From the NCBI GenBank assembly GCA_965207225.1, contig CBDBLV010000004.1:576001-640000 (forward strand): a stretch of DNA of 64,000 nucleotides, in the 5' to 3' direction. The notes under the pieces are model-generated. The model did no database searches and was not told the origin of the DNA. It saw only the letters and a list, made by a program, of their open reading frames with translations. Origin of the DNA: Dehalococcoidia bacterium. Its GTDB lineage: Bacteria; Chloroflexota; Dehalococcoidia; Plut-88900. Positions 12,237 to 59,805 of this stretch are shown in pieces (the first letter of the stretch is position 1; each line of letters begins with the position of its first letter). Both the position numbers and the translations under genes were made by a program.

Positions 12237-12422
12237 AACAACCCCAAACTTCTAGCCCGTGAAATCGGCCCATTCTAACACGTACCCTCCTTCATCCCCG
12301 ACACCAACCCGTAAACCCATCCCCGGATCAAGGCCGCCCATGCTGGGATCTGCATCAATGGGAATATGATGAGGGTGAACCTTGAGCTAATTGGTGTACA
12401 ATGGACGAATAGGTGAGCAGCA

Positions 12423-12623
12423 ATGACTAGTCTGGCCGAAATCAAGGAAGCCATCCAAAACTTGCCCCCCGCCGACTTCGCTGAAATAGCCCAGTGGTTC
12501 AATGACCTGCAAGAGGACTTGTGGGACCAGCAAATCGAAGCCGATGCAGATGCCGGCCGTCTTGACTTCTTCAAAGAACAAGTCGAGCAGGCCCTGGCAG
12601 CCGGCACTGTGAGAGACCTGTAG
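12423..12623 (+). CDS. Small acidic antitoxin-like protein
   Basis: 66 aa, WDQQIEADADAGRLD motif typical of partners of ParE-like toxins; AGGTG RBS. Confidence 0.75.
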   Translation: MTSLAEIKEAIQNLPPADFAEIAQWFNDLQEDLWDQQIEADADAGRLDFFKEQVEQALAAGTVRDL

Positions 12624-12877
12624 CGCACCGTACCATACCCCAGTTTTGGGAACACCTCGCCTCCCTGCCCGAGCCGATTCAGCAGGTCGCCCACCGTAAC
12701 TTTCAACGCCTCAAGGAAGACCCTGCCTACCCATCCCTCCGCTTCAAGAAAGTCGGAGACTACTGGGTAGCTCGCGTCGGACCTAATTGTCGTGCCCTCG
12801 CCGTGACCAGGGGGGCAGACCTGTTTTGGGTCTGGATCGGCCCTCATGACGCCTACGAACGAATAATCAGTTCCTGA
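12620..12877 (+). pseudogene. ParE/RelE-like toxin reading frame lacking a canonical start codon (missed by ORF track)
   Basis: Manual translation VAHRTIPQFWEHLASLPEPIQQVAHRNFQRLKEDPAYPSLRFKKVGDYWVARVGPNCRALAV..WIGPHDAYERIISS*; first codon GTA. Confidence 0.75.
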
Positions 12878-12899
12878 TTCCCCCATCCCCGTCTCCCCA

Positions 12900-13106
12900 T
12901 CCCGTCATCCCCGCCACAGAGAGTCGGAATCCATCCCCGGGCGGTGAGGCCGCTCATGCTGAGAGGCCCTCTTAAGCATGCCCCGAGTCCCTCGAGGGGT
13001 ATGAGCGGGGGGGAGGCTCGCGTACAGTCCACCCGTCGCGCCCTTCCACATCCACTCCCCTCTCTGTCATCCCGAGGCCCCGCGAGGGATCTAGGACTTG
13101 CCCACC
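12900..13106 (+). repeat. Cluster of REP-like palindromic repeats upstream of cassette 1
   Basis: GTCATCCCCG..GGAATCC, GCCGCTC..GAGCGG and GTCATCCCGAGGCCCCGCGAGGGATC units; reverse copies at 23065-23357, 58730-58797 and 59717-59745. Confidence 0.75.
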
Positions 13107-13159
13107 TACATCTTTCCATGTCATACCTTCCCTTCTCCCCCGACCCCACCTCCCACCTA

Positions 13160-13187
13160 TTGATTTTGTAAATGTATGTGCTATACT
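13160..13187 (+). promoter_or_regulatory. sigma70-like promoter of cassette 1
   Basis: TTGATT-16-TATACT with TG extended -10, in an AT-rich patch. Confidence 0.65.
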
Positions 13188-13379
13188 TATGTTCGTGGCA
13201 CCGGCCTCGTTACCCGGGCCACCAAACCAGGAAAGGACTAAAGGAGTCCCATGAGCCGCATAGGCCTCACATGGCCCCGTCGCACCCGGTCGGTATGGGA
13301 CCGACCCTCTGCCGACACGCACCTCCTCCCCACTACCTTTCCGCCTACCGTGTCCCTCAGCCCTTCACCCTTCCCCCGT

Positions 13380-13808
13380 GGAAGTTCAAAGCCCAGCGCC
13401 CCCTCTCGACCACTGTCGTCCGGCGTCACTAAGGAGCCGCAACTTACCTTGCTGCCCCACCCGGACGTGGATGCCCGCGGTTTTCCGCGGAAGGACCCCA
13501 CCTGCGCCCATAGCGGCGTACGGATGGATGCCTGCTTTCACTCGCTGCAGATGTTCCCACGGCTAACCCCCGCGAGTGCCCCCCTCCGCCGTGGATGCCT
13601 GCCCAGGCTCGCCGCAGATGTATTTCCCACAGCTAACCCTTTGCGAGCTTTCCCCTCCGCTGTGGATGCCCGCGCCTTTGCGCGGAGGTACGCCCGCAAC
13701 GCCCTACCCGGCCTTGCGAAGATTGCCCGGGCCAACGCCCAGGCGATTGCCCACGTTCCAACCCCCGACGCCCCGGCTTACGCCGCAGAGGGGGCGCTGG
13801 CAACTTCC
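13380..13808. ncRNA. Putative structured non-coding domain, cassette 1 (unknown family)
   Basis: Perfect 14-bp terminal IR CCAGCGCCCCCTCT (13393-13406)/AGAGGGGGCGCTGG (13787-13800) plus outer GGAAGTT/AACTTCC; four TGGATGCC-led modules. Confidence 0.5.
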
Positions 13809-13853
13809 TCATTTAGTTCCTCTTCCTCCTACGCCATCCCCTCCCTTATTCCT

Positions 13854-13971
13854 AGTACTGAACTAGAGGCAAGCGCCTGCGCCATGGCGCAGGCGCTTGC
13901 CTCTGTTTTTTCCTCCCCCTCTCCCTTGAAGGCCCTAAGGGAGAGGGGGATCAAGGGGGTAAGGGTTCCCC
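13854..13971 (+). repeat. Variable-palindrome repeat, copy A
   Basis: AGTACTGAACT + perfect 40-bp palindrome 13865-13904 + TCCCCCTCTCCCTT hairpin. Confidence 0.8.
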
Positions 13972-14175
13972 TCCCCGCCCCTTAAACAATCAAACCCATG
14001 CCTGAAACCCCAATTCAATCAAAACCTCCCTAGAATCCGGGAGTCCCTTCCCCCACAATTGAATGCCCCGGCCACCGTCCGACCCCCGGCCGCTTGACCT
14101 GAACGCCCATAGGCGTAACAATGGCGCCCACAGGCCGGTCTTTACCCAATCGACTAGACGCAGGGGGTGAACGGG

Positions 14176-15276
14176 ATGGGATACCGGATTATTTCAGCGG
14201 ACAGCCACCTCGATCTGCAGTGGCTTCCCCACGACGCCTTTACTTCCAGGGCCCCGGCTGAGTGGAAGGACAAGGTCCCGTACGTCGAGGCCCGCCCCGA
14301 CGGCAACTACTGGATGGTCGAAGGCCGCACCATGACCCGCGCCGGCTGGTATGGCCCGGGCGTCAACGGCGGCAAGCGCGGCGAGATGCTCGAAAGGGAG
14401 GGCTTCACCGTCGGCGACCTCCGCTGCTCCGACTACCAGCTCAGAAAGGCCGACCAGGAACGCGACGGCGTCGACGCCGAGGTCATCTACGGCATCCTCA
14501 CCACCGACCGCAGCTTCGACGACAAGGAAGCCCTCGCCGCCACCTACCGCGCCTACAACGACTACATCTCCGAATGGCAGCAATACGACCCCGACTGGCT
14601 CGTGCCCCTCGGCGAGATCCCCAACCATGACGGCAAGGCCGCCGGCGGTGAGCTCTCCCGCCTGGCCGAGATCGGTGTCCGCGGCGCTGAGTTCGCCCCG
14701 GCAACCATGACTCACCCCTTCTGGAGCGACGAGTGGGAGCCCCTCTGGGATGCCGGCGAAGAGACTCAGCTTCCCGTCTCATTCCACGCCTTCAACATCT
14801 CGACCACCTTCTCCGACAAGGACCACCCCTCCGCCGCCGCCGTCAGCCTCTGTCTCGCCCCATCACGCGCCGACGAAGTCCTCTGCGCCCTCATCTTCTC
14901 CGGCGTCCTCGAACGCCACCCGAGACTCAACGCCATCCTCGGCGAGAGCGGCATCGGCTGGCTGCCCTTCATGCTGGAGCGCATGGACTACTCTTACGAC
15001 CGCCGCCTCACCGACCTCGAACTCCCCCTCCTCCCCTCCGAGTACTTCAAGCGGCAGGTCTACGCCAGCTTCATCATCGACTACTGGGGCACAAAGGCCA
15101 TGTGGGAGCTCGGCTACCTAAAGAACATCATGTGGTCCACCGACTACCCCCACCGCGATGGCTCCTGGCCCGACTCCCAGGAGATCATCGACCGCACCTT
15201 CAAGGACCTCCCTGAGGACGTCAAGAAGGCCTGCGTCCACGACAACGTCGTCCGCCTCTTCAACCTCAACGACTGA
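14176..15276 (+). CDS. Amidohydrolase_2 family protein
   Basis: SADSH, EVIYG, SFH, GESGIGWLP, WSTDYPH. Confidence 0.92.
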   Translation: MGYRIISADSHLDLQWLPHDAFTSRAPAEWKDKVPYVEARPDGNYWMVEGRTMTRAGWYGPGVNGGKRGEMLEREGFTVGDLRCSDYQLRKADQERDGVDAEVIYGILTTDRSFDDKEALAATYRAYNDYISEWQQYDPDWLVPLGEIPNHDGKAAGGELSRLAEIGVRGAEFAPATMTHPFWSDEWEPLWDAGEETQLPVSFHAFNISTTFSDKDHPSAAAVSLCLAPSRADEVLCALIFSGVLERHPRLNAILGESGIGWLPFMLERMDYSYDRRLTDLELPLLPSEYFKRQVYASFIIDYWGTKAMWELGYLKNIMWSTDYPHRDGSWPDSQEIIDRTFKDLPEDVKKACVHDNVVRLFNLND

Positions 15277-15299
15277 CCTCTACATTCCCACCAACGACA

Positions 15300-15331
15300 A
15301 ATCGGCGGGTGCGATATCGCACCCGCCGATT
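15300..15331. terminator. Perfect 32-bp palindrome between convergent genes (probable bidirectional terminator)
   Basis: AATCGGCGGGTGCGAT|ATCGCACCCGCCGATT. Confidence 0.6.
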
Positions 15332-15359
15332 CATTTGTTGAACTTATCGAAGCTTAGGG

Positions 15360-16274
15360 CTATCCGATTGCCGGCGCGGCCTCTCGGGCCAGGACGCCCA
15401 AGTCGCTCATCAGACCTTCCAGCCTCGATTCCTGCTCCGCGGTCAGGGGCCTGAACGGGGAGCGCGGAATGCCGATGTCCACGCCAGCCATTGCCGTGGC
15501 GGCCTTTGCGGTAGCGGCGTATCCCTCGGTCTCGAAGAAGTGGTTCAGGCGGTACAGCGGTCTCCACAGTTCGCGGGCGGCGTGCCAGTCCTTGCGCTCA
15601 ACCACCAGCTCGAAGAGCTCCACACAGCGCCCGGGAGTCGCATTGGCTACGCCCCACACGCAGCCCTTGGCCCCGTGCAGCAGCCCGGCCAGAGAACCGG
15701 TGTCCGAGCCGTTGAAGATGATCAGGTCTTCAGACCTCTCCTCCAGCACCCGTTGGAACTGGACTAGGTCCCCGGTGGAGTCCTTGATCATCTGGACGTT
15801 GGGTATTTCCACCAACCGGGCCAGGACCTCGGGGGTGAGATTGACCTTCGAGTGGGCGGGGATGTTGTAGACCATGATTGGCAGGGGGACCGCATCGTTG
15901 ACGGCCTGGTAGTGGTCGACCAGCTCCTGGGTGGTGGGCACCTCGTAGAAGGGCGGCACGATCATCAGGGCGTCGCAGCCTGCGGCCTCGGCGTGCTTGC
16001 TCAGCTCTATCACTTCCCAGGTGCTGCATGCGCCCGTGTGGGCCATGACCGGCACCCGACCCGCCACCTGGTCTACGGTCATCTCGGTGACCCGCTTCCG
16101 CTCCTCGAAGCTCAGGCTTGCGAACTCGCCGGTGCCGCCGCATGGGATGATCCCGTGGACACCGTTCTCCAGCTGGAACTCGATGAGCCTTCTCAAGCTC
16201 CCCTCATCGATGCTCTGGTCTCCCCGGGAGAAGGGGGTACAGATAGGGGTATAGATACCTCTGAATTTGCTCAC
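15360..16274 (-). CDS. DapA/N-acetylneuraminate lyase family aldolase
   Basis: GGTGE, YNIP, IKDS; GTG start after AAGGAGG. Confidence 0.92.
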   Translation of the reverse strand: MSKFRGIYTPICTPFSRGDQSIDEGSLRRLIEFQLENGVHGIIPCGGTGEFASLSFEERKRVTEMTVDQVAGRVPVMAHTGACSTWEVIELSKHAEAAGCDALMIVPPFYEVPTTQELVDHYQAVNDAVPLPIMVYNIPAHSKVNLTPEVLARLVEIPNVQMIKDSTGDLVQFQRVLEERSEDLIIFNGSDTGSLAGLLHGAKGCVWGVANATPGRCVELFELVVERKDWHAARELWRPLYRLNHFFETEGYAATAKAATAMAGVDIGIPRSPFRPLTAEQESRLEGLMSDLGVLAREAAPAIG

Positions 16275-16431
16275 ATTACTCCTCCTTATTGGTGCAGTCC
16301 CGTTGGACTGCCCTTGCGGTCTCAGTGGTTGAATGCTAGCAAAGCCCGACACCCCTGACAACTCCGCAATAGGCCGTGCTAGAATCCTCCCGAATGGCCC
16401 GAAGACTATACCCACCTTTTGGAGGAATAAC

Positions 16432-16884
16432 GTGCAGGTAGAACAGAAGCTGCAAGAACTGGGCATAACCTTGCCCGAGGTCCGGGACCCGGTCGGCAAC
16501 TACGTCCCGACCGTCCGAACCGGGAACCTTCTCTACGTCTCAGGCCACATAGGAGACCTGACCGACGCCCTCGGCCAGCTGGGCACGGATCTCACGGTGG
16601 AGGAGGGGTACGAAGCCGCCCGAAAGACGGCAATTGCACTCCTTGGTTCAGTGAAGGGCGCCATCGGTGACCTGGACAAGGTTAAGAGGGTGGTCAAGCT
16701 GCTGTGTATGGTCAATGCGGCAGTCGGGTTCACGCAGCACCCCTCGGTTGCCAACGGATGCTCGGACTTGCTGGTGGAGGTATTCGGGGAAAAGGGTCGG
16801 CATGCCAGATCAGCCATAGGCTTCTCCGGCCTTCCCGGCAACGGCTGCATCGAGATAGAGATGATCCTCGAAATCGAGGATTAA
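16432..16884 (+). CDS. RidA family protein
   Basis: GNYVP, LYVSG, ANGCSDLL, GRHARSAIG, EIE; GGAGG RBS. Confidence 0.92.
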   Translation: MQVEQKLQELGITLPEVRDPVGNYVPTVRTGNLLYVSGHIGDLTDALGQLGTDLTVEEGYEAARKTAIALLGSVKGAIGDLDKVKRVVKLLCMVNAAVGFTQHPSVANGCSDLLVEVFGEKGRHARSAIGFSGLPGNGCIEIEMILEIED

Positions 16885-16908
16885 GGAGTGCCTTCCTAGG
16901 GAGCCGGC

Positions 16909-17208
16909 ATGGATATCAGTGCCCCGATACATCCCAGAGAACATTTGGCCGAAATCATAGAAGAGTTGGATATAAGCCAATATCGCCTTGCCGTCACTAT
17001 TGGAGTGCCGCCCAGACGAATCAACGAGATTGTGCATGGCAGGCGCTCCATAACTGCCGACACAGCACTCCGAATTGGCAAGGCCCTTGACATGACTCCC
17101 GAGTTTTGGCTCAACCTCCAGCGGATGTTTGATCTGGATGTCGCTAGTGCGACAACGGATGTCTCCGGGATTGATACGCTCGTCCCGAGTCCGAAAGGCT
17201 CCCCGTGA
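16909..17208 (+). CDS. higA: HigA-family antitoxin (no adjacent toxin)
   Basis: PIHP.E.L, ISQYRLA, RINEIVHGRRSITADTALR, FWLNLQ. Confidence 0.9.
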   Translation: MDISAPIHPREHLAEIIEELDISQYRLAVTIGVPPRRINEIVHGRRSITADTALRIGKALDMTPEFWLNLQRMFDLDVASATTDVSGIDTLVPSPKGSP

Positions 17209-17231
17209 AAGCAGGTCTTCCTCGATTTGCG

Positions 17232-19916
<2,685 letters not shown>

Positions 19917-19998
19917 TGGTCTCTCGTTTACGAAGTTTGTGGAAAGGCATCGGCGGGACGGCTCACGGGTGGGAGTATATCACGCAGCACCGAGCAGA

Positions 19999-21372
19999 TT
20001 AGGCGAGCTCTCGTTCCACATCCGAGAGCACCTTGTCCACCTGCCCGACCACGTAGTCGATCTCGTCTCGGGTGACGATGAGCGGGGGAATCAGGAATAT
20101 GATGTCGCCCCTCTGTCGGGCGAGGAGGCCGTGGCGGAGGAAGGCTGCGGTAATCTTTTGGCCGAGAGCTGCGTCTGCCGGGAAGCGCTCGCGGGTGTTC
20201 CTGTCCTTGACCAGCTCAATGCCGCAGAGGAGTCCCAGGCCGCCACGTATGTCTCCGACTATGGGGTGTTCGTAGAGGGTCTGTAGCTGGTCGAAGAGGT
20301 AGGCGCCCATCCTGGCGGAGTTCTCGACCAGGCCTTCGCGGTCGAGGATGTCCAGGTTGGCAAGCGCTGCGGCACAGGCGGCCGGGTGTCCGCCGAAAGT
20401 GAAGATGTGACGGAACATCTCGCGGTCGCCGCCAATGAAGGTGTCGGCGACTTTCCTGGTGGCGATGGCGGCGCCGATGGGCTGGTACCCGCTGGACAGG
20501 CCCTTGGCCCCGACCAGGATGTCGGGCACGAGGTCCCAGTGGTCGGAGGCGAACATCTTGCCCGTGCGACCAAAGCCTGTGACCACTTCATCGGCGATGA
20601 TGAGGACGCCGTAGCGGTCGCAGATGGAGCGGACGGTGGGCCAGTAGTCGGGGTGGGGGACGGTACAGGTGGCGGCGGAAAGGGGTTCGGCGACGAAGGC
20701 GGCGACAAGCTCGGGACCCTCGTCGAGGATGGCCCTCTCCACGTCCTGGCCGCACTGCAGGGTGCATTCGCCCATCTGGCTGCAATAGAGGCAGCGGTAG
20801 GGGTTGGGCATGGAGACGTGAACGTTGCCCGGCATCAGGGGTCCGAAGTCCTTGTCACCAGCGCCGGCCCCTCCGCCGAGGCTGATGGTGGCGAGGGTGC
20901 CGCCGTGGTATGAGCCGATCCTGCTTATGACCTTGTAGCGGCCCGGTTCGCCGCGGAGCTTGTGGTATTTCTTGGCCATTTTGAGGGCGGTCTCAATGCC
21001 CTCGGAGCCGCCGCTGACCAGGAAGACCCGGGACTCCTTGTCGGGGGCGAGGGAGGCGAGCTTTTCGACGAGGCGCAGTGCTGGCTCGTTGGTGGTGTGT
21101 TCCGGGGAGTAGTTGATCTTCACCAGCTGGTCTGCCACTGCGTCTGCGATCTCCCGACGGCCGTAGCCTACATTCTGCAGCTGCATCCCGGAGATGAGGT
21201 CGAAATAGCGGTTGCCGTGGATGTCCTCGACCCAACAGCCCTCTCCCCTTTCGACGATGTTGAGGCCGCCGGGCTGGGATAGCTCCGCGACCTGTTGGGA
21301 ATGAGGCCAGAAGTGGTCGGCGGCGATCTGCTGGAGCCGGTCGAAGCGTTCAGATGGGGTCGGGGATATCAC
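19999..21372 (-). CDS. Class III PLP aminotransferase (omega-amino acid type)
   Basis: SGGSE, YHG, ADEVVTGFGRTG, AKGLSSGY; start uncertain. Confidence 0.92.
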   Translation of the reverse strand: MISPTPSERFDRLQQIAADHFWPHSQQVAELSQPGGLNIVERGEGCWVEDIHGNRYFDLISGMQLQNVGYGRREIADAVADQLVKINYSPEHTTNEPALRLVEKLASLAPDKESRVFLVSGGSEGIETALKMAKKYHKLRGEPGRYKVISRIGSYHGGTLATISLGGGAGAGDKDFGPLMPGNVHVSMPNPYRCLYCSQMGECTLQCGQDVERAILDEGPELVAAFVAEPLSAATCTVPHPDYWPTVRSICDRYGVLIIADEVVTGFGRTGKMFASDHWDLVPDILVGAKGLSSGYQPIGAAIATRKVADTFIGGDREMFRHIFTFGGHPAACAAALANLDILDREGLVENSARMGAYLFDQLQTLYEHPIVGDIRGGLGLLCGIELVKDRNTRERFPADAALGQKITAAFLRHGLLARQRGDIIFLIPPLIVTRDEIDYVVGQVDKVLSDVERELA

Positions 21373-21451
21373 AACAGCAACCCTAAGATGCCGGTTTCCT
21401 GAGGAACGTTCGGAAAGGAGGGCAAGAAGCAGACTCAAAGAAAAAAGGCAC

Positions 21452-21568
21452 CCGGCGGCGACCTATTTTCCGCGGAGAGTTGCCCCTCTAGTATCGTCGG
21501 CGCAGAGGTGTTTCACTTCCGTGTTCGGAATGAGAACGGGTGGGCCCACCTCGCTATAGCCACCGCAG
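21452..21568 (-). rRNA. rrf: 5S rRNA, unlinked from 23S
   Basis: Reverse complement GGTGGCTATAGCG..CACCCGTTCTCATTCCGAACACGGAAGTGAA..GCGCCGACGATACT..GGAAAATAGGTCGCCGCC; flanking AAAGGCAC/GTGCCTTT stem and U-tract. Confidence 0.95.
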
Positions 21569-21587
21569 TGCCTTTATTCAGGGACGA

Positions 21588-21616
21588 ATTCTACTATGAC
21601 ACCGATGTCGGCGCAA
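21588..21616 (-). promoter_or_regulatory. sigma70-like promoter for the 5S gene
   Basis: TTGCGC-17-TAGAAT just upstream of the 5S precursor stem. Confidence 0.65.
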
Positions 21617-21787
21617 GGGCTTGTGTTCGTTCCGGAGGTTGGCGACATGCTAAGTCTCTATTCAGTTGTGGGGGGTGGGGTTTTGGTTGAACGTTGATTG
21701 AACTCGTAGCTGGTTTGATTGAATGACGCCTAAAGGGATTGCTGAGAATTTCGCGTGGTGCGGGGAGGGGATGCCTCCAGCCCCGCG

Positions 21788-21905
21788 GGGGAACCCTCAC
21801 CCCCTTGGTCCCCCTCTCCCTTGGGGCCTTAAAGGGAGAGGGGGAGAGAAGAACAGAGGAAGAGGTTGGCGCTGCAGCGCCAACCTCTTCCTCTAGTTCA
21901 GTACT
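21788..21905 (-). repeat. Variable-palindrome repeat, copy B
   Basis: Perfect 40-bp palindrome 21855-21894 with the same flanks as copy A. Confidence 0.8.
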
Positions 21906-22036
21906 GGTAAGAGGGGAGGGTATGACGCATAAGGAAGCGCAGGGCGTGGATTCCCGCTTGGGGGCCGGAATAGCGGGATTGGAAGTTATTCAGTTTGGGG
22001 GCACGTTGTCGGTTCTGTCTGTTGGGGTTTAGGGTC

Positions 22037-22495
22037 GGCGATGGAAGACGCACCTGGAGCGGTGACCCCGCAGGGTGTCGCTGGCCCGGCCGTACGGGGT
22101 CGGTCAGTCCGGTCCCGCCTCACTGGACGGTCGGACTGCGGCCGGCAGAAGCCCCTTTCTTTAGTGTCGGCTTGGAGGCGTCCCAGGGCTGGGGACGTGT
22201 CTCCGCCGCTGCCTAGATCTGGCTGTGTAGGCGGACATACGGGTCCGTCATCCGTCACAGGTTCCAATAAACGGGTTAGCTGCGCTGTAAGTGAATACAG
22301 GAAGGGGAATGTCCAGAGTCATGTCCCCACGCAGGAGTACGGGGTTTCCAGTTCGCCGCCTGTATCCAGGAACCCGGAGTGGCGGTCTGCCCAGTTTCAT
22401 TTGCTGAAGCGGACGGAGAGCCGAGCGGTCCTCGGCTACGGGCGACCCCGTTCCGCTCCTTAGGTCGGGTTGCTCCAGGGCGTCTTTCCATCGCC
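22037..22495. ncRNA. Putative structured non-coding domain, cassette 2 (unknown family)
   Basis: Terminal IR GGCGATGGAAGACGCACCTGGAGC / GCTCCAGGGCGTCTTTCCATCGCC; ends and one internal hairpin shared with 58885-59332. Confidence 0.6.
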
Positions 22496-22832
22496 TGGGG
22501 GGACAGGGGAATGTGATGGGTCGGGACGATGTGGAGGAGATGGCGCCTTTCGCTTGTGCCGCAGGCCTCTCTTTTATCCGTTCTTAATACCCTTCGACAA
22601 GCTCAGGGCGAACGGAACGGAGAAGGCCGTTGGGATGGGCCAGGACGTTGAGTCCTCCGGGCGCCGGGATAGGAGATGGCGTCTGTCGCTTGTGCCGCAA
22701 CCTGTCCGCCTCACAAGGGAGGGGAGAGGCATTGGGATGGGCTTGGGCGTTGAGTCCTCTCGGGCGCCGGGGTTGTTCCCCTTGGGTTTTCGGGTTCCTC
22801 CTTAAGGTGGTGTCGGGTCTAGACTTAGAACA

Positions 22833-22861
22833 AATATAAAGCTCAAGTGTTTGCATGTCAA
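22833..22861 (-). promoter_or_regulatory. sigma70-like promoter of cassette 2
   Basis: TTGACA-17-TATATT. Confidence 0.7.
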
Positions 22862-22904
22862 GGGGTATGTTACGTTTATGGAGGGAATATCCCCCGGTCC
22901 CCCA

Positions 22905-23044
22905 GGAAACCCTCACCCCCTTGATCCCCCTCTCCCCCTCGAGGGACTCGGGGCAGGCTCTTAGGGCCTTTAAGGGAGAGGGGGAAAGAAGAACAGAGAC
23001 AGACGTGGGTGCGTTGCACCCACGTCTGTCTTTAGTTCAGTACT
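22905..23044 (-). repeat. Variable-palindrome repeat, copy C (with nested short insert)
   Basis: 16-bp perfect stem AGACAGACGTGGGTGC-GTT-GCACCCACGTCTGTCT, same flanks. Confidence 0.8.
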
Positions 23045-23064
23045 GAGGGGACAGAACCCCGCCC

Positions 23065-23357
23065 CAGATTCCTCGCGGGGCATCGGAATGACAGTGAGGG
23101 GTGTGATTGGCTATGGAGGGATGCGACGGGTCGGCAGGATGTGGGCCTCGCCCCGCTCATACTTCGAGGGCCTCAGCACGAGCGGCCCCACCCCAGGGCA
23201 ATCCTTTGTGATTGCCGCTACGCGGGAGGGGATACCCCCAGCTCCACGGGATGGATTCCCGATCGGAGTCGGGAATGACGGATGTGAGGAGGGATGCCAG
23301 GGGTGAGGGACGTGAGTGGGCAAGTCCTAGATTCCTCGCGGGGCATCGGAATGACAG
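23065..23357 (-). repeat. Cluster of REP-like repeats upstream of cassette 2
   Basis: AGATTCCTCGCGGGGCATCGGAATGACAG twice; GGATTCCCGA..TCGGGAATGAC; CCGCTC..GAGCGG. Confidence 0.75.
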
Positions 23358-23479
23358 GGGAGAAGGGGGCGGGGCGATGGGGAAGGCGGTAGTGATCCAG
23401 GCAGAACATGGATTGTTCCCGTAGCTGTATGATTGTTTTCGAGAAAACTCTCTATGAGATTAGGAGAAGGGGGTTTGGA

Positions 23480-24274
23480 GTGTCGGGTAGAGATGAGTGT
23501 CGGGAGGGAATCCTGGACTCGGCGGAGTTTCCCCGTTCGGCGAAGTATGATCCTGAATGGGTCCTGGAGAACATGATGGGGCCGAACGCCCTGTGGTTGA
23601 CGGAGTCCCTGGCAGGGTGCATGAATTTCGAACCGAATATGCGGGTCCTGGACATGGGCTGCGGCAAGGGGCTCAGCTCCATATTCCTGGCGAAGGAGTA
23701 CGGGGTGGAGGTCTGGGCGACGGACTTATGGGTAGATGCGAGCGATAACTTTCAGCGCTTTTGTGCGGCAGGTGTTGAAGACAGGGTGTACCCCATACAT
23801 GCGGAAGCGCACGCACTGCCATACGCCGACGGCTTCTTCAACGCCATTGTGAGCGTGGACGCCTATCACTATTTCGGGACGGATGACCTCTACCTACAGA
23901 CCCACATGGCGAGGCTTATCAAGCCCGGTGGCCAAATGGGGATTGTGGTCCCCGGGTTGGTGGAAGAGCTGACAGCGAACGAGCCCCCGGAACACCTAGA
24001 GAACTATTGGGAGCCCGCCTTGTTCAGCCTGCACAGCCCGACCTGGTGGAGGCGTCACTGGGAACGAAGCGGCCTCGTGACAGTCGAACTTGCCGATTTG
24101 ATCCCGGATGGATGGAAGCTCTGGATGGTGTCGGACCGGGCCTGGTCTGAGCGGCTGGGCAAGCCCAGCGAAGAGGCCGATATGCTGGCCCTGGATGGGG
24201 GTCGTGCCCTGGGGTTCACACGCATGGTTGCCCGCAGGAACGAAAGGCCGGCGGCGCGGCTGGATGCGCTGTAG
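23480..24274 (+). CDS. SAM-dependent methyltransferase
   Basis: MMGPNALWL, VLDMGCGKGLSS, DAYHYFG; start uncertain. Confidence 0.9.
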   Translation: MSGRDECREGILDSAEFPRSAKYDPEWVLENMMGPNALWLTESLAGCMNFEPNMRVLDMGCGKGLSSIFLAKEYGVEVWATDLWVDASDNFQRFCAAGVEDRVYPIHAEAHALPYADGFFNAIVSVDAYHYFGTDDLYLQTHMARLIKPGGQMGIVVPGLVEELTANEPPEHLENYWEPALFSLHSPTWWRRHWERSGLVTVELADLIPDGWKLWMVSDRAWSERLGKPSEEADMLALDGGRALGFTRMVARRNERPAARLDAL

Positions 24275-58568: not shown

Positions 58569-58884
58569 AGGCGGCAGTGACTGCCTAGTCGGGAGTGGTC
58601 TGCCAGCGGTGCTGATTGCCCTCGTTCCGAGGAAGTGGTTTTTGATTGTTTTGCGGATTCAGGCACGGCTTTGATTGTTTAAGGAAAAAATCTTCATTTG
58701 CCTGTTCACCCTCGCCCCGCACCGCCCCTGGATTCCCGACTTCTCGGGAATGACGAGTAGAGGGGGATGGATTCCGGTTCGGGGGTGGGAGTGACGGGTT
58801 AGATGGGTGGGGATGATTGTGGGGGAGGTGGGGTTGTTTGGTTGTGGGGTCTGGGTTTGCATTTTGTCTGTTGGGTTTTGGGTC

Positions 58885-59332
58885 GGCGATGGAAGACGCT
58901 GTCCGGACTTTGACCCTGTTCCTATCCAGGCAGCTTGTAGGTGTCCCGGGGTCGGGGGACACCTGCCGCCGGCAATTGCTATGCCTCCACGTACTAAGTA
59001 CGGGCTTGCACGCCACACAGGCCGCGAGCAATCGCCAAGCGTCCTCGTACCAAGCAAGTACGGGCCGCAGGCCACTTACGCCGGTGAGTTCAACCGGCCA
59101 GGCCCAGCTCCCTGAGAGAGCGGCAGCATTGGGCCGCCGTCGAAACGGCTTTGTCTTGCCCTGCCGCCAGAGCGCATCTAGGCGCTCGGCCCGCCTCAAA
59201 CGACGTCGAAAGGACTCGCAGGGGGCCGGCCTCGACCCTCACGTATAAGAGGGGAGGCCAAGGCCTCTACCCTCATGCACTGAGGGGGAGGCCGGACGGG
59301 AACGGTGTAGACCAGAGCGTCTATCCATCGCC
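58885..59332. ncRNA. Putative structured non-coding domain, cassette 3 (unknown family)
   Basis: Terminal IR GGCGATGGAAGACGCT / AGCGTCTATCCATCGCC enclosing about nine hairpins; homologous ends to cassette 2. Confidence 0.6.
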
Positions 59333-59435
59333 TGGAAGACCAGGGAAGAGTGCATGGGACCCTGTGGGGTCGGGTGGGCTTCCCCGGTTTTTTGGTTCCC
59401 CCTTTGGATATGAATAACAGTTCGAAACTGAGGAC

Positions 59436-59463
59436 AGTTTAGCACGATTGTAATAGGGGTCAA
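59436..59463 (-). promoter_or_regulatory. sigma70-like promoter of cassette 3
   Basis: TTGACC-16-TAAACT with TG extension; AAACTG-AGGA-CAGTTT IR overlaps the -10. Confidence 0.65.
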
Positions 59464-59509
59464 GGGGTTTTGGCGTGGTTTTTGGGGGACATAGGCGGCG
59501 GGTCGGCCA

Positions 59510-59745
59510 GTGTGGGTCGCCCCACCCCAGGGCGACCCGCCGGTCGCCCCTACGGGGGAGACGAGCGCGGGTGGCGTCCAGTGTGCCCACTAGGGGCACC
59601 CCTACGAGGGATGGGTGTCCCCCCGATTTCACACAGGCAGGCCAGGGTCGGGAATGGCGGATAGGGGGCAGGAGGCGCATGGCAAGGGGCGGGGTTGGTT
59701 TGGGGCGGGGCGCTACGGATTCCTCGCAGGGCCTCGGAATGGGAC
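59510..59745 (-). repeat. GTAG-type and other REP-like repeats upstream of cassette 3
   Basis: GGGCGACC-cgcc-GGTCGCCCCTAC, GTGCCC-acta-GGGGCACCCCTAC, GGATTCCTCGCAGGGCCTCGGAATG. Confidence 0.7.
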
Positions 59746-59805
59746 ACGAGAGGGCGCCGGGATGGGACAGGTTGGGTGGACAGAGTGGAGTAGAATCGGG
59801 GTGTT

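Follow-up and report, generated by a model that had tools for sequence, protein, structure and literature searches.

Correia elements (CREE/NEMIS) of Neisseria and ERIC elements are protein-free, multi-copy intergenic repeats of 100–150 bp that contain functional promoters, are co-transcribed with their neighbors, and form long hairpins in the RNA. Here, we describe a family of intergenic cassettes, three of which lie in a 64,000-nucleotide stretch of a Dehalococcoidia bacterium genome (G000:C4:576001-640000; hereafter, "the window"). Each cassette consists of a promoter, a leader, a large helix-closed RNA domain, and a CA-rich 3′ module. The cassettes constitute a repeat family whose modules have a set order and orientation, whose fold is conserved, whose members are present or absent at orthologous sites, and whose 3′ junction is at a −35 box. 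Like the Correia and ERIC elements, they are protein-free, multi-copy, intergenic, promoter-carrying, and folded, and are probably transcribed. They differ in their size (0.6–1 kb per unit), in the internal position of their inverted arms, which close an RNA domain conserved by covariation, in the location of their 3′ end at a host −35 box, and in the shuffling of promoter, leader, and domain modules between copies; furthermore, neither terminal repeats nor a clear target duplication was seen in the cassettes.

Correia, ERIC, and REPIN elements have been named as promoter-carrying mobile repeats in a commentary on putative mobile promoters, which are similar non-coding sequences at approximately −150 to −50 of unrelated genes, some with RNA motifs, that spread by an unknown mechanism (Matus-Garcia, Nijveen and van Passel 2012; PMC3575422). 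Operationally, such promoters have at least 80% identity over at least 50 nt upstream of non-paralogous genes in one genome (PMC3575422). The cassettes fit this operational class and differ from it in that the repeated sequence is a defined unit of several modules, one of them a promoter, and has a conserved RNA fold and a defined −35 junction. With miniature inverted-repeat transposable elements and other non-autonomous transposons they share the large number of copies (48) and the presence/absence polymorphism, which was seen at the sites of cassette 3, the 5S rRNA gene, and nusA, whereas no autonomous relative with the same ends was found for them (the DDE families were not searched exhaustively). 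The modules that flank them (R1, R2, and R3) resemble repetitive extragenic palindromic (REP) sequences and REPINs in that they are short GC-rich palindromes, present in 130–165 copies each and partly arranged as inverted pairs; unlike in REPIN/RAYT systems, no RAYT-type (Y1_Tnp) gene was found in this 92.3%-complete genome, and the cassette core is not a REP sequence. The OLE, GOLLD, ROOL, HEARO, and raiA RNAs are also several hundred nucleotides long, with multiple helices, a conserved structure, and their own promoter, whereas the cassettes occur by the dozen in one genome, in many subfamilies, with presence/absence polymorphism, without an Rfam match, and, by BLAST, in only one genus. The bridge RNA of IS110 and the omega RNA of TnpB/IscB are likewise structured non-coding RNAs, located at one end of a mobile unit, with a promoter in the element; however, neither gene was found in this genome, and no recombinase gene directly adjoins any cassette. 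The available portions of the literature on mobile promoters, Dehalococcoidia noncoding repeats, SAR202 sponge symbionts, and STAB-SD contained no description of the family.

We interpret the cassettes, with a probability of roughly 0.6, as a genus-restricted modular family of approximately 50 non-autonomous mobile units, in which a promoter-driven structured RNA is placed in front of host −35 boxes. If this is correct, one bacterial genus carries approximately 50 protein-less elements per genome, each copy of which sets a strong promoter and a large conserved RNA fold immediately before another promoter, as at rpoB, nusA, gyrB, recA, and ribosomal genes. The family would then be a concrete and dissectable case of mobile promoters and a new family of large structured RNAs; in one cassette type, an open reading frame (ORF) would be kept open without selection on the protein, translation itself being the function.

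Census and module order of the cassettes

The genome (G000) comprises 4.03 Mb in five contigs, has a G+C content of 60–62%, and is 92.3% complete. A genome-wide motif census identified 48 cassette units, or approximately one per 84 kb, a lower density than the one per 20 kb or so that an earlier note on the window, made from its sequence, had proposed. Forty-five units are domains of 202–557 nt closed by GGCGATGG arms, which form duplexes of 14–20 bp in 45/45 arm pairs (−24 to −35 kcal/mol). The type of cassette 1 in the window adds three units, and at least two further units exist whose 3′ arm escaped the arm pattern. The arm-closed domains fall into 11 subfamilies (of 14, 6, 5, 5, 4, 2, 2, 2, 2, 2, and 1 members), the largest of which consists of 14 near-identical copies of approximately 312 nt. 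The distal arm sequence covaries among the subfamilies (AAGACGC/GCGTCTT vs AGGTCC/GGACCT).

When 11 motifs were mapped around the 48 units, the modules were found in a fixed order on a single strand: REP modules (R3, R1, and R2), promoter, leader, domain, X box, optional REP modules, optional T1 repeat, optional T2 repeat, and X box. The REP hairpins are usually located immediately upstream of the cassette promoter, for which three near-consensus sigma70-type variants, common to the units, were recognized; two of the three are followed by a short palindrome around TTCGAA. Behind the promoter, a Shine–Dalgarno (SD)-like box, AAGGAGGAACCAAAAACCC, occurs without a start codon after it and precedes a leader helix, CAGGGAAG...CTTCCCTG, recognized by eye; the L1 leader box has 41 matches genome-wide. 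One promoter variant is joined to various domains, and one domain to various promoters, so the units are mosaics. On the 3′ side of the arm, all subfamilies have a CA-rich stretch and an X box, CCCCACAACTGAATA. The inverted arms are thus internal to the unit, with conserved sequence extending ~100–330 nt upstream of them (promoter and leader) and ~90 nt downstream (CA-rich module, X box, and following stretch). The coherent repeated unit of set order and orientation described in the earlier note therefore stands as far as the promoter, leader, domain, and 3′ module are concerned, and does not extend to the tail. The palindrome around TTCGAA (CAGTTCGAACTG or TTCGATCGAA) lies just past the −10 box, at 59430–59418 (−) in the window and at the same place in other copies, and could serve as a shared regulator's operator or form a 5′ hairpin.

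All three cassettes in the window have a REP-like cluster upstream of the promoter, and the promoters at 13160 (+), 22861 (−), and 59463 (−), given in the earlier note, are present, with 16-bp spacers and a TG before the −10 box in cassettes 1 and 3. The leader boxes are AAGGAGGAACCCGAAAACCC in cassette 2 and AAGGGGGAACCAAAAAACC in cassette 3, and a helix-closed domain lies at the expected place in all three. Cassettes 2 and 3 have the closing arms GGCGATGGA(A/T)AGACGC...GCGTCTTCCATCGCC in common; cassette 1, with a different closing helix, different arms, and a different leader, belongs to another subfamily. In the promoter scan, four promoter-like sites were found in 10.4 kb against 2.1 in shuffles, and one in 1.7 kb against 0.5. 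The features are listed below.

Cassette 1
12887–13097, +: REP-like cluster, seen in the sequence, including an R3-type copy, GTCATCCCGAGGCCCCGCGAGGGATC, at ~13066–13095; 8–46 copies genome-wide by self-BLAST
13160–13187, +: promoter, TTGATT-16-TATACT, with TG before the −10 box; the homology of 15 cassette-1-type copies starts here
13190–13806, +: conserved RNA unit, with a 5′ hairpin, the SD AAGGAG at 13241–13246, and an ATG at 13251
13251–13985, +: ORF of 244 codons, starting at the conserved SD and ATG and ending in the TAA of a T1 box
13381–13801, +: helix-closed domain with arms GCCCAGCGCCCCCTC / GAGGGGGCGCTGGC; the closing helix, CCAGCGCCCCCTC/GAGGGGGCGCTGG, has 14 pairs and is invariant in 15/15 copies
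13864–13915, +: R1 REP module between domain and tail, a 19-pair GC hairpin (13864–13905) plus TTTTTT, terminator-like
13916–13975, +: R2 REP module, hairpin CCCCCTCTCCCTT..AAGGGAGAGGGGG
13980–14024, +: T1 tail, CCTTAAACAATCAAA-N-CAATCAAAA, boxes 29 bp apart (dyad 13987–14023)
14050–14122, +: X-box-like CCCCCACAATTGAAT, then a promoter-like TTGACC-17-AACAAT (14094–14122) of the next gene, from the sequence and the promoter scan
14167–15276, +: Amidohydro_2 gene (Pfam), next after cassette 1
Cassette 2
22925–23085, −: REP cluster, with R3, an R1 hairpin at 23031–22997, and R2
22833–22861, −: promoter, TTGACA-17-TATATT, 11/12 consensus positions; variant "c", common to other copies
22496–22832, −: leader, with AAGGAGGAACC at 22803–22793 and internally duplicated insert modules
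22032–22495, −: helix-closed domain, GGCGATGGAAAGACGCCCTGG ... CCAGGTGCGTCTTCCATCGCCGACCC; z-score −4.7; arm duplex ~−34 kcal/mol
21854–21895, −: R1 terminator-like hairpin between domain and tail
21659–21758, −: T2 tail, CCACGCGAAATT..GGCGTCATTCAATCAAACCAGCTACGAGTTCAATCAACGTTCAACCAAAA, plus X box CCCCCCACAACTGAATA
21567–21450, −: 5S rRNA gene, with its own promoter, TTGCGC-17-TAGAAT (21616–21588), served by the tail region of cassette 2
Cassette 3
59500–59775, −: REP-like cluster (sequence and self-BLAST)
59436–59463, −: promoter, TTGACC-16-TAAACT with TG; the near-palindrome CAGTTTCGAACTG is next, at 59430–59418
59333–59435, −: leader, with AAAGGGGGAACC at 59404–59393 and the leader helix CCGGGGAAG/CUUCCCUGG
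58880–59332, −: helix-closed domain, fold z-score −9.9
58640–58684, −: T1 tail (dyad 58677–58641)

Location of cassettes in front of unrelated genes

The next gene is co-oriented with the unit in 43/48 cases; of the five other units, one is at a contig end and another is cassette 3. The upstream gene shows no such bias (18 in the same orientation and 30 in the opposite one). The products of 41 of the 43 co-oriented downstream genes were scanned against Pfam and are functionally unrelated, belonging to replication, transcription, translation, repair, and varied metabolism. Housekeeping genes among them encode UvrA, LeuRS (leuS), NusA, RpoB, S2 (rpsB), S15 (rpsO), GyrB, RecA, Def, and the 5S rRNA, as well as a class-I Glu/Gln-tRNA synthetase, RNase HII, FolD, and RibF; amidohydrolases, luciferase-like enzymes, and others make up the rest. 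A riboswitch-like regulon, or cis-regulatory leader, is ruled out because the downstream genes share no function, the 41 products having no common pathway or ligand logic. The sole mobile-element gene among the 41 is an IS481-type transposase gene (rve and HTH domains; G000:C1:39217-40344), downstream of the cassette with its 5′ arm at C1:38513.

The 3′ ends of the units are defined by their distance from the promoter of the next gene. An X box followed by N37–45 and TTGNNN-N16–18-TANNNT was found at 15/46 X boxes genome-wide, compared with 0–3 in control windows, and in 13 of these 15 the promoter pattern begins at 41–43 nt. From this spacing, the 3′ terminal segment of the unit therefore extends up to the −35 box of the host promoter. 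In 24/48 units, the next gene follows the domain without an intervening terminator module. Unrelated genes are preceded by repeated copies of the 3′ module, X box, and T2 blocks, as in the operational definition of mobile promoters.

Presence and absence among related genomes

The family was found in 8/8 other genomes of the same genus and, as a weak match (E = 3e-7), in one of three sister genera, and a BLAST search with cassette 1 matched 0/292 other genomes of the class. A comparison of close relatives, which the earlier note had suggested, indeed revealed cassettes present or absent at orthologous sites. At the cassette-3 site, the flanks in genome G008 are 94–96% identical, and only ~135 nt lie between them, without a cassette; the orthologous intergenic sequence is too diverged for the junctions to be defined. 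A cassette is located upstream of the 5S rRNA gene in 5/9 genomes of the genus, and the cassette-1 type is present at the orthologous site in G000, G008, and G007. No empty site was found in the genus at the rpoB locus.

The nusA site is the most informative for the junctions. It is empty in G002 and G006, where ~80 nt separate a tRNA gene from the nusA promoter, and is filled by subfamily 1 in G000, G008, and G007 and by another subfamily in G005. On the left, homology with the empty sites is lost ~12–30 nt before the −35 box; on the right, it returns exactly at the −35 hexamer CTTGCA.

Conservation of the RNA fold

The fold z-scores against shuffled sequences were −4.2, −4.7, and −9.9 for cassettes 1, 2, and 3, respectively. 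The leader helix of cassette 3 (CCGGGGAAG/CUUCCCUGG) is part of the minimum-energy fold, the leader alone having a z-score of just −1.1. For the cassette-1 type, 15 sequences from four species with 77–98% identity were aligned and analyzed with RNAalifold. Their homology spans only the region from the promoter to ~13800; the mean identity of cassette 1 to its 14 homologues is 0.62–0.97 within 13150–13800 and 0.3–0.4 outside. The consensus structure has 138 pairs, with 97.4% of cells paired, and 17/138 pairs are compensatory, compared with a mean of 11.2 in shuffles (0/500 shuffles reached 17) and with 1–4 when the structure was slid by 1–3 columns. Variable columns are concentrated in the unpaired regions (179/290, vs 59/261 of the paired columns), and many G-U pairs are invariant, which fits an RNA read from the promoter strand. 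The RNA fold of the cassette-1 type is thus conserved and under selection. No Rfam family matches the cassettes, even at E ≤ 5, at which the whole 64-kb window yielded, besides the 5S rRNA (the only match above threshold), just chance-level microRNA and leader matches on REP hairpins.

The open reading frame of the cassette-1 type

The description of the cassettes as protein-free is correct in that nine ORFs inside the three cassettes matched nothing in Pfam or PHROGs below E = 0.08, and incomplete in that cassette 1 retains an SD, an ATG, and an open frame. The SD (AAGGAG) and the ATG at 13251 are invariant in 15/15 cassette-1-type copies, 14 of which have an open frame behind them (shuffle P(0 stops) = 0.03), the other five frames having 0–10 stops. 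In the G001 copies, a +2 indel and a +1 indel restore the frame. Several copies have a common TAG stop ~30 nt past the closing helix; in the window copy, the frame continues to a TAA inside T1. In cassettes 2 and 3, every frame is interrupted by stops.

Purifying selection on the codons was not seen in these copies: there is no third-position excess, with variable-site fractions for the three positions of 0.23/0.22/0.23 in paired and 0.65/0.62/0.58 in unpaired columns, and amino-acid identity is below nucleotide identity in 14/14 comparisons (e.g., 0.53 vs 0.78). In public assemblies, 48 unnamed predicted proteins match the ORF, none with a Pfam domain. We read these patterns as suggesting that the frame is kept open for the act of translation rather than for its product. 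In the subfamily with the leader CAGGAAAGGAATAAGGAGT (e.g., C5:1736998 and C5:1190472), the frame from the leader ATG is open for 272–500 codons through the domain, REP modules, and T2, and in one copy it ends in a TGA that overlaps the ATG of the next gene (ATGA).

Tail repeats and REP modules

The tails at the 3′ side of the cassettes belong to two repeat families. T1, found behind cassettes 1 and 3, is CCTTAAACAATCAAAGCCGTGCCTGAAACCGCAAAACAATCAAA, with 20 exact dyads and 23 nhmmer matches genome-wide; the CAATCAAA-N21-CAATCAAA dyad, already noticed in the window, occurs there twice against 0.00 expected in 100 shuffles. T2, behind cassette 2, is CCACGCGAAATCCCCAGAAATCCCTTTAGGCGTCATTCAATCAAACCAGCTACGAGTTCAATCAA followed by 1 to ~8 more TTCAATCAA boxes with an 11-bp period; 42 pattern matches were found genome-wide, ~39 of which are real. 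In cassette 2, the boxes reported earlier as TTCAATCAAA/TTCAATCAAC/TTCAACCAAA are three TTCAA(T/C)CAA boxes at 21722–21683. By eye, the CAATCAA boxes fit no DnaA, CtrA, or IHF consensus.

The earlier note had taken the CAATCAAA tail as part of the unit and possibly its end, which the genome-wide distribution does not bear out. T1 or T2 lies within 500 nt downstream of only 24/48 units, and approximately half of the tails stand alone: 9/20 T1 matches and 20/42 T2 matches are behind a unit. The tails downstream of units are always on the strand of the unit, and 11/20 T1 matches have no unit upstream. The T1 of cassette 1 is shared by the G008 orthologue only, the paralogues ending in an X box, T2, or something else. 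At the cassette-3 site, T1 is kept in G007 without a cassette, and G008 is without both; at the 5S site, T2 is present in G000 only, among five cassette-filled genomes. In cassettes 1 and 2, the promoter and terminator scan placed a terminator-like hairpin between the domain and the tail. T1 itself is 88–98% conserved across the genus.

The box arrays are related in position to the genes that follow them, with a median distance of 113.5 nt to the start codon of a co-oriented gene (58/79 intergenic arrays are co-oriented), and they often directly precede a −35/−10 pair, e.g., at tRNA-Pro, the 5S gene, rpsO, and recA. To judge from sequence and position, T1 (29-bp dyad) and T2 (11-bp phased) are separate promoter-proximal modules of the downstream gene, outside the cassette, and their most likely role is that of an array that binds a protein or bends the DNA ahead of the −35 box. 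The CAATCAAA tail is thus better viewed as a promoter-upstream element of the downstream gene than as a cassette end, and the intergenic regions of this lineage appear to be assembled from a few reusable modules, namely, terminator hairpins, promoters, leaders, RNA domains, and phased box arrays.

The REP modules R1, R2, and R3 are also separate repeats of 130–165 copies each (~130 R1 and 165 R2 matches). R1 is a perfect 16–19-pair GC hairpin followed by a T-rich run, and is terminator-like at 13864–13905 (+), 21895–21854 (−), and 23031–22997 (−). The usual place of R1-R2 is right before the cassette promoter, at a distance of ~140 nt from the leader box, and inverted REP pairs, such as R2(rev)-R2, occur in part. 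The flanks of R1 are constant (AGTACTGAACTAGAGG ... CCTCTGTTCTTCT), and its stem differs from copy to copy yet is perfectly complementary. In contigs of a related strain (run X10), 16 letters stand in place of the REP cluster at 12883–13057; the variation of REP clusters among close relatives is therefore independent of the cassette core.

Search for a partner enzyme

The earlier note had named several enzymes that might be encoded by an autonomous partner of the cassettes. No ORF adjoins representative copies on either strand. Four reverse transcriptase (RT) genes are present in the genome, all at least 16 kb from any cassette, and of the 31 copies of a large serine recombinase gene, just 3 are found at 1.4 kb or less from one. 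These 31 paralogous copies (≥900 nt, 66–93% nucleotide identity) encode proteins of ~580 amino acids with Resolvase, Recombinase, and Zn_ribbon_recom domains (e.g., G000:C5:1036494-1038236; L091:2194-3936, − strand). In six cases, the recombinase gene overlaps a tRNA gene at the 3′ end of the latter, and several of the copies form head-to-head pairs; 31 integrase-type genes are an unusual load for a 4-Mb genome.

Proposed mechanism and alternative explanations

In the reading that we favor, a near-consensus sigma70-type promoter would drive a leader with a strong SD-like box and then a 200–560-nt RNA domain closed by a 14–20-bp helix, and the unit would end in the CA-rich module, i.e., the X box (CCCCACAACTGAATA) plus ~41–43 nt. 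The units would spread or be exchanged as DNA, landing co-oriented and right 5′ of the −35 box of another gene, with copying by a host enzyme or by homologous recombination between shared flanking modules. Each unit would be transcribed from its own promoter, and transcription would continue into the next gene where no terminator intervenes. The long closing helix may act as an RNase III-type processing stem that frees the domain, and the SD-like box may shield the C-rich RNA from 5′ exonucleases or Rho, a protection that the translation of a sequence-indifferent ORF would provide in the cassette-1 type. A bolder version, to which we give little chance, would make the cassette a self-propagating RNA gene, whose own structured RNA serves as guide or template for placing new copies precisely ahead of sigma70 −35 boxes by means of a host or unlinked enzyme (e.g., one of the four RTs or 31 serine recombinases), with the ORF or SD box retaining ribosomes against Rho and RNases and the phased CAATCAA arrays docking a promoter-associated protein that marks the target.

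Several points weigh against mobile units of this kind. The transcription, RNA ends, and processing of the cassettes are deduced from DNA sequence. No terminal inverted repeats were found at the unit ends, and the trace of a target duplication at the nusA junctions is limited to a possible GGC/TGC match. Y1_Tnp (PF01797; Y1/HUH), TnpB, and IS110 had no matches in the 92.3%-complete genome, and no transposase-like partner was found, with GIY-YIG not searched for and the DDE families not searched exhaustively. Cassette 3 is convergent with the next gene, whose 3′ end it faces, and its type has no compensatory pairs among 149 (nine sequences, 84–92% identity), a set that adds little, all 149/149 predicted pairs being kept, with the changes in loops. 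The differences in presence and absence could in part be deletions rather than insertions, and the T1 in G007 may be the remnant of a lost cassette, so an ancestral composite of cassette and tail may have existed. Finally, the mosaic of promoters, leaders, and domains suits recombination or gene conversion as well as it does transposition, and homologous recombination between shared modules is therefore a real alternative to transposition.

The strong promoters, the conserved fold with covariation and loop-biased change, the terminator-like hairpins after the domain in cassettes 1 and 2, and the retention of the cassette-1 type at an orthologous site in G000, G008, and G007 would also suit non-mobile, paralogous genes for trans-acting structured RNAs, with an incidental position and with gene loss as the cause of the differences between genomes. 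This is unlikely in view of the 11 subfamilies with near-identical copies, the orientation bias (43/48), the set distance at which the 3′ end meets the −35 box of unrelated genes, the occupation of one site by different subfamilies, the empty site in the closest relative, and the 24/48 units without a terminator module before the next gene. Co-orientation, direct adjacency to the promoter of the next gene, the frequent housekeeping genes downstream, and the R1 terminator hairpins just upstream of the cassette promoters could instead point to a domesticated, portable expression module that boosts or insulates the downstream gene through a terminator before the unit, its strong promoter, and a leader that is processed and stabilized, the RNA domain having no function beyond processing. 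RNase III processing stems are long helices, which the closing helix recalls. The leader SD-like box without a start codon may likewise be compared with ribosome-bound SD elements, which are reported to block RNase J1 (PMC5737220). However, the downstream genes retain their own −35 and −10 boxes, and cassette-free orthologues work (nusA in G002 and G006; 5S in 4/9 genomes); in cassettes 1 and 2, read-through would be stopped by a terminator-like hairpin, the gene next to cassette 3 is convergent with it, and the domain interior is conserved by covariation well past the needs of a processing stem, all of which makes such a module quite improbable.

The two remaining explanations concern the ends and the coding potential of the unit, and we consider both very improbable. 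If the REP cluster, promoter, domain, and CAATCAAA tail were one element, with the tail as its end or as a site acted on in trans, the constant strand of the tails within 500 nt of 24/48 units, the conservation of T1 across the genus (88–98%), and a dyad far beyond chance would be accounted for; half of the units are nevertheless tailless, 11/20 T1 and 22/42 T2 matches have no unit upstream, paralogues of one subfamily have different tails or none, T1 exists without a cassette at the cassette-3 site in G007, T2 is present at only one of the five filled 5S sites (that of G000), and REP insertions and a terminator-like hairpin separate the domain from the tail. Alternatively, the cassette-1 type and "subfamily 4" might encode a real, fast-evolving, proline/arginine-rich protein of ~191–197 residues, the RNA being secondary. 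The invariant SD and ATG (15/15), the open frame in 14/15 copies (shuffle P = 0.03), the frame-restoring +2 and +1 indels in G001, the TAG stop ~30 nt past the closing helix common to several copies, and the prediction of 48 such proteins by gene callers in public assemblies speak for a protein. Against it stand the equal variability of all codon positions, whether the columns are paired or not, an amino-acid identity below that of the nucleotides, the lack of a Pfam or PHROGs family and of a name for any of the 48 matches, the continuation of the frame through REP modules to variable ends in several copies, the absence of the ATG from one subfamily-4 copy, and the stops in all frames of cassettes 2 and 3.

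Other observations on the window

No tRNA was found in the window, and the 5S gene, the sole copy in G000, stands alone there, the window containing neither a 16S nor a 23S gene; each of the nine genomes of the genus has a single 5S copy. The contigs of four DNA runs over 12300–23500 break at repeats, with no clean joint across any cassette. No RNA run was found to contain 13000–22999 of the window; the labelled DNA runs that do so (among X9, X13, X15, and X17–X24) are described as sponge, coral, marine, or plain "metagenome", and a contig of 5,044 nt from run X9 aligns to 13943–18987 with 209 differences.

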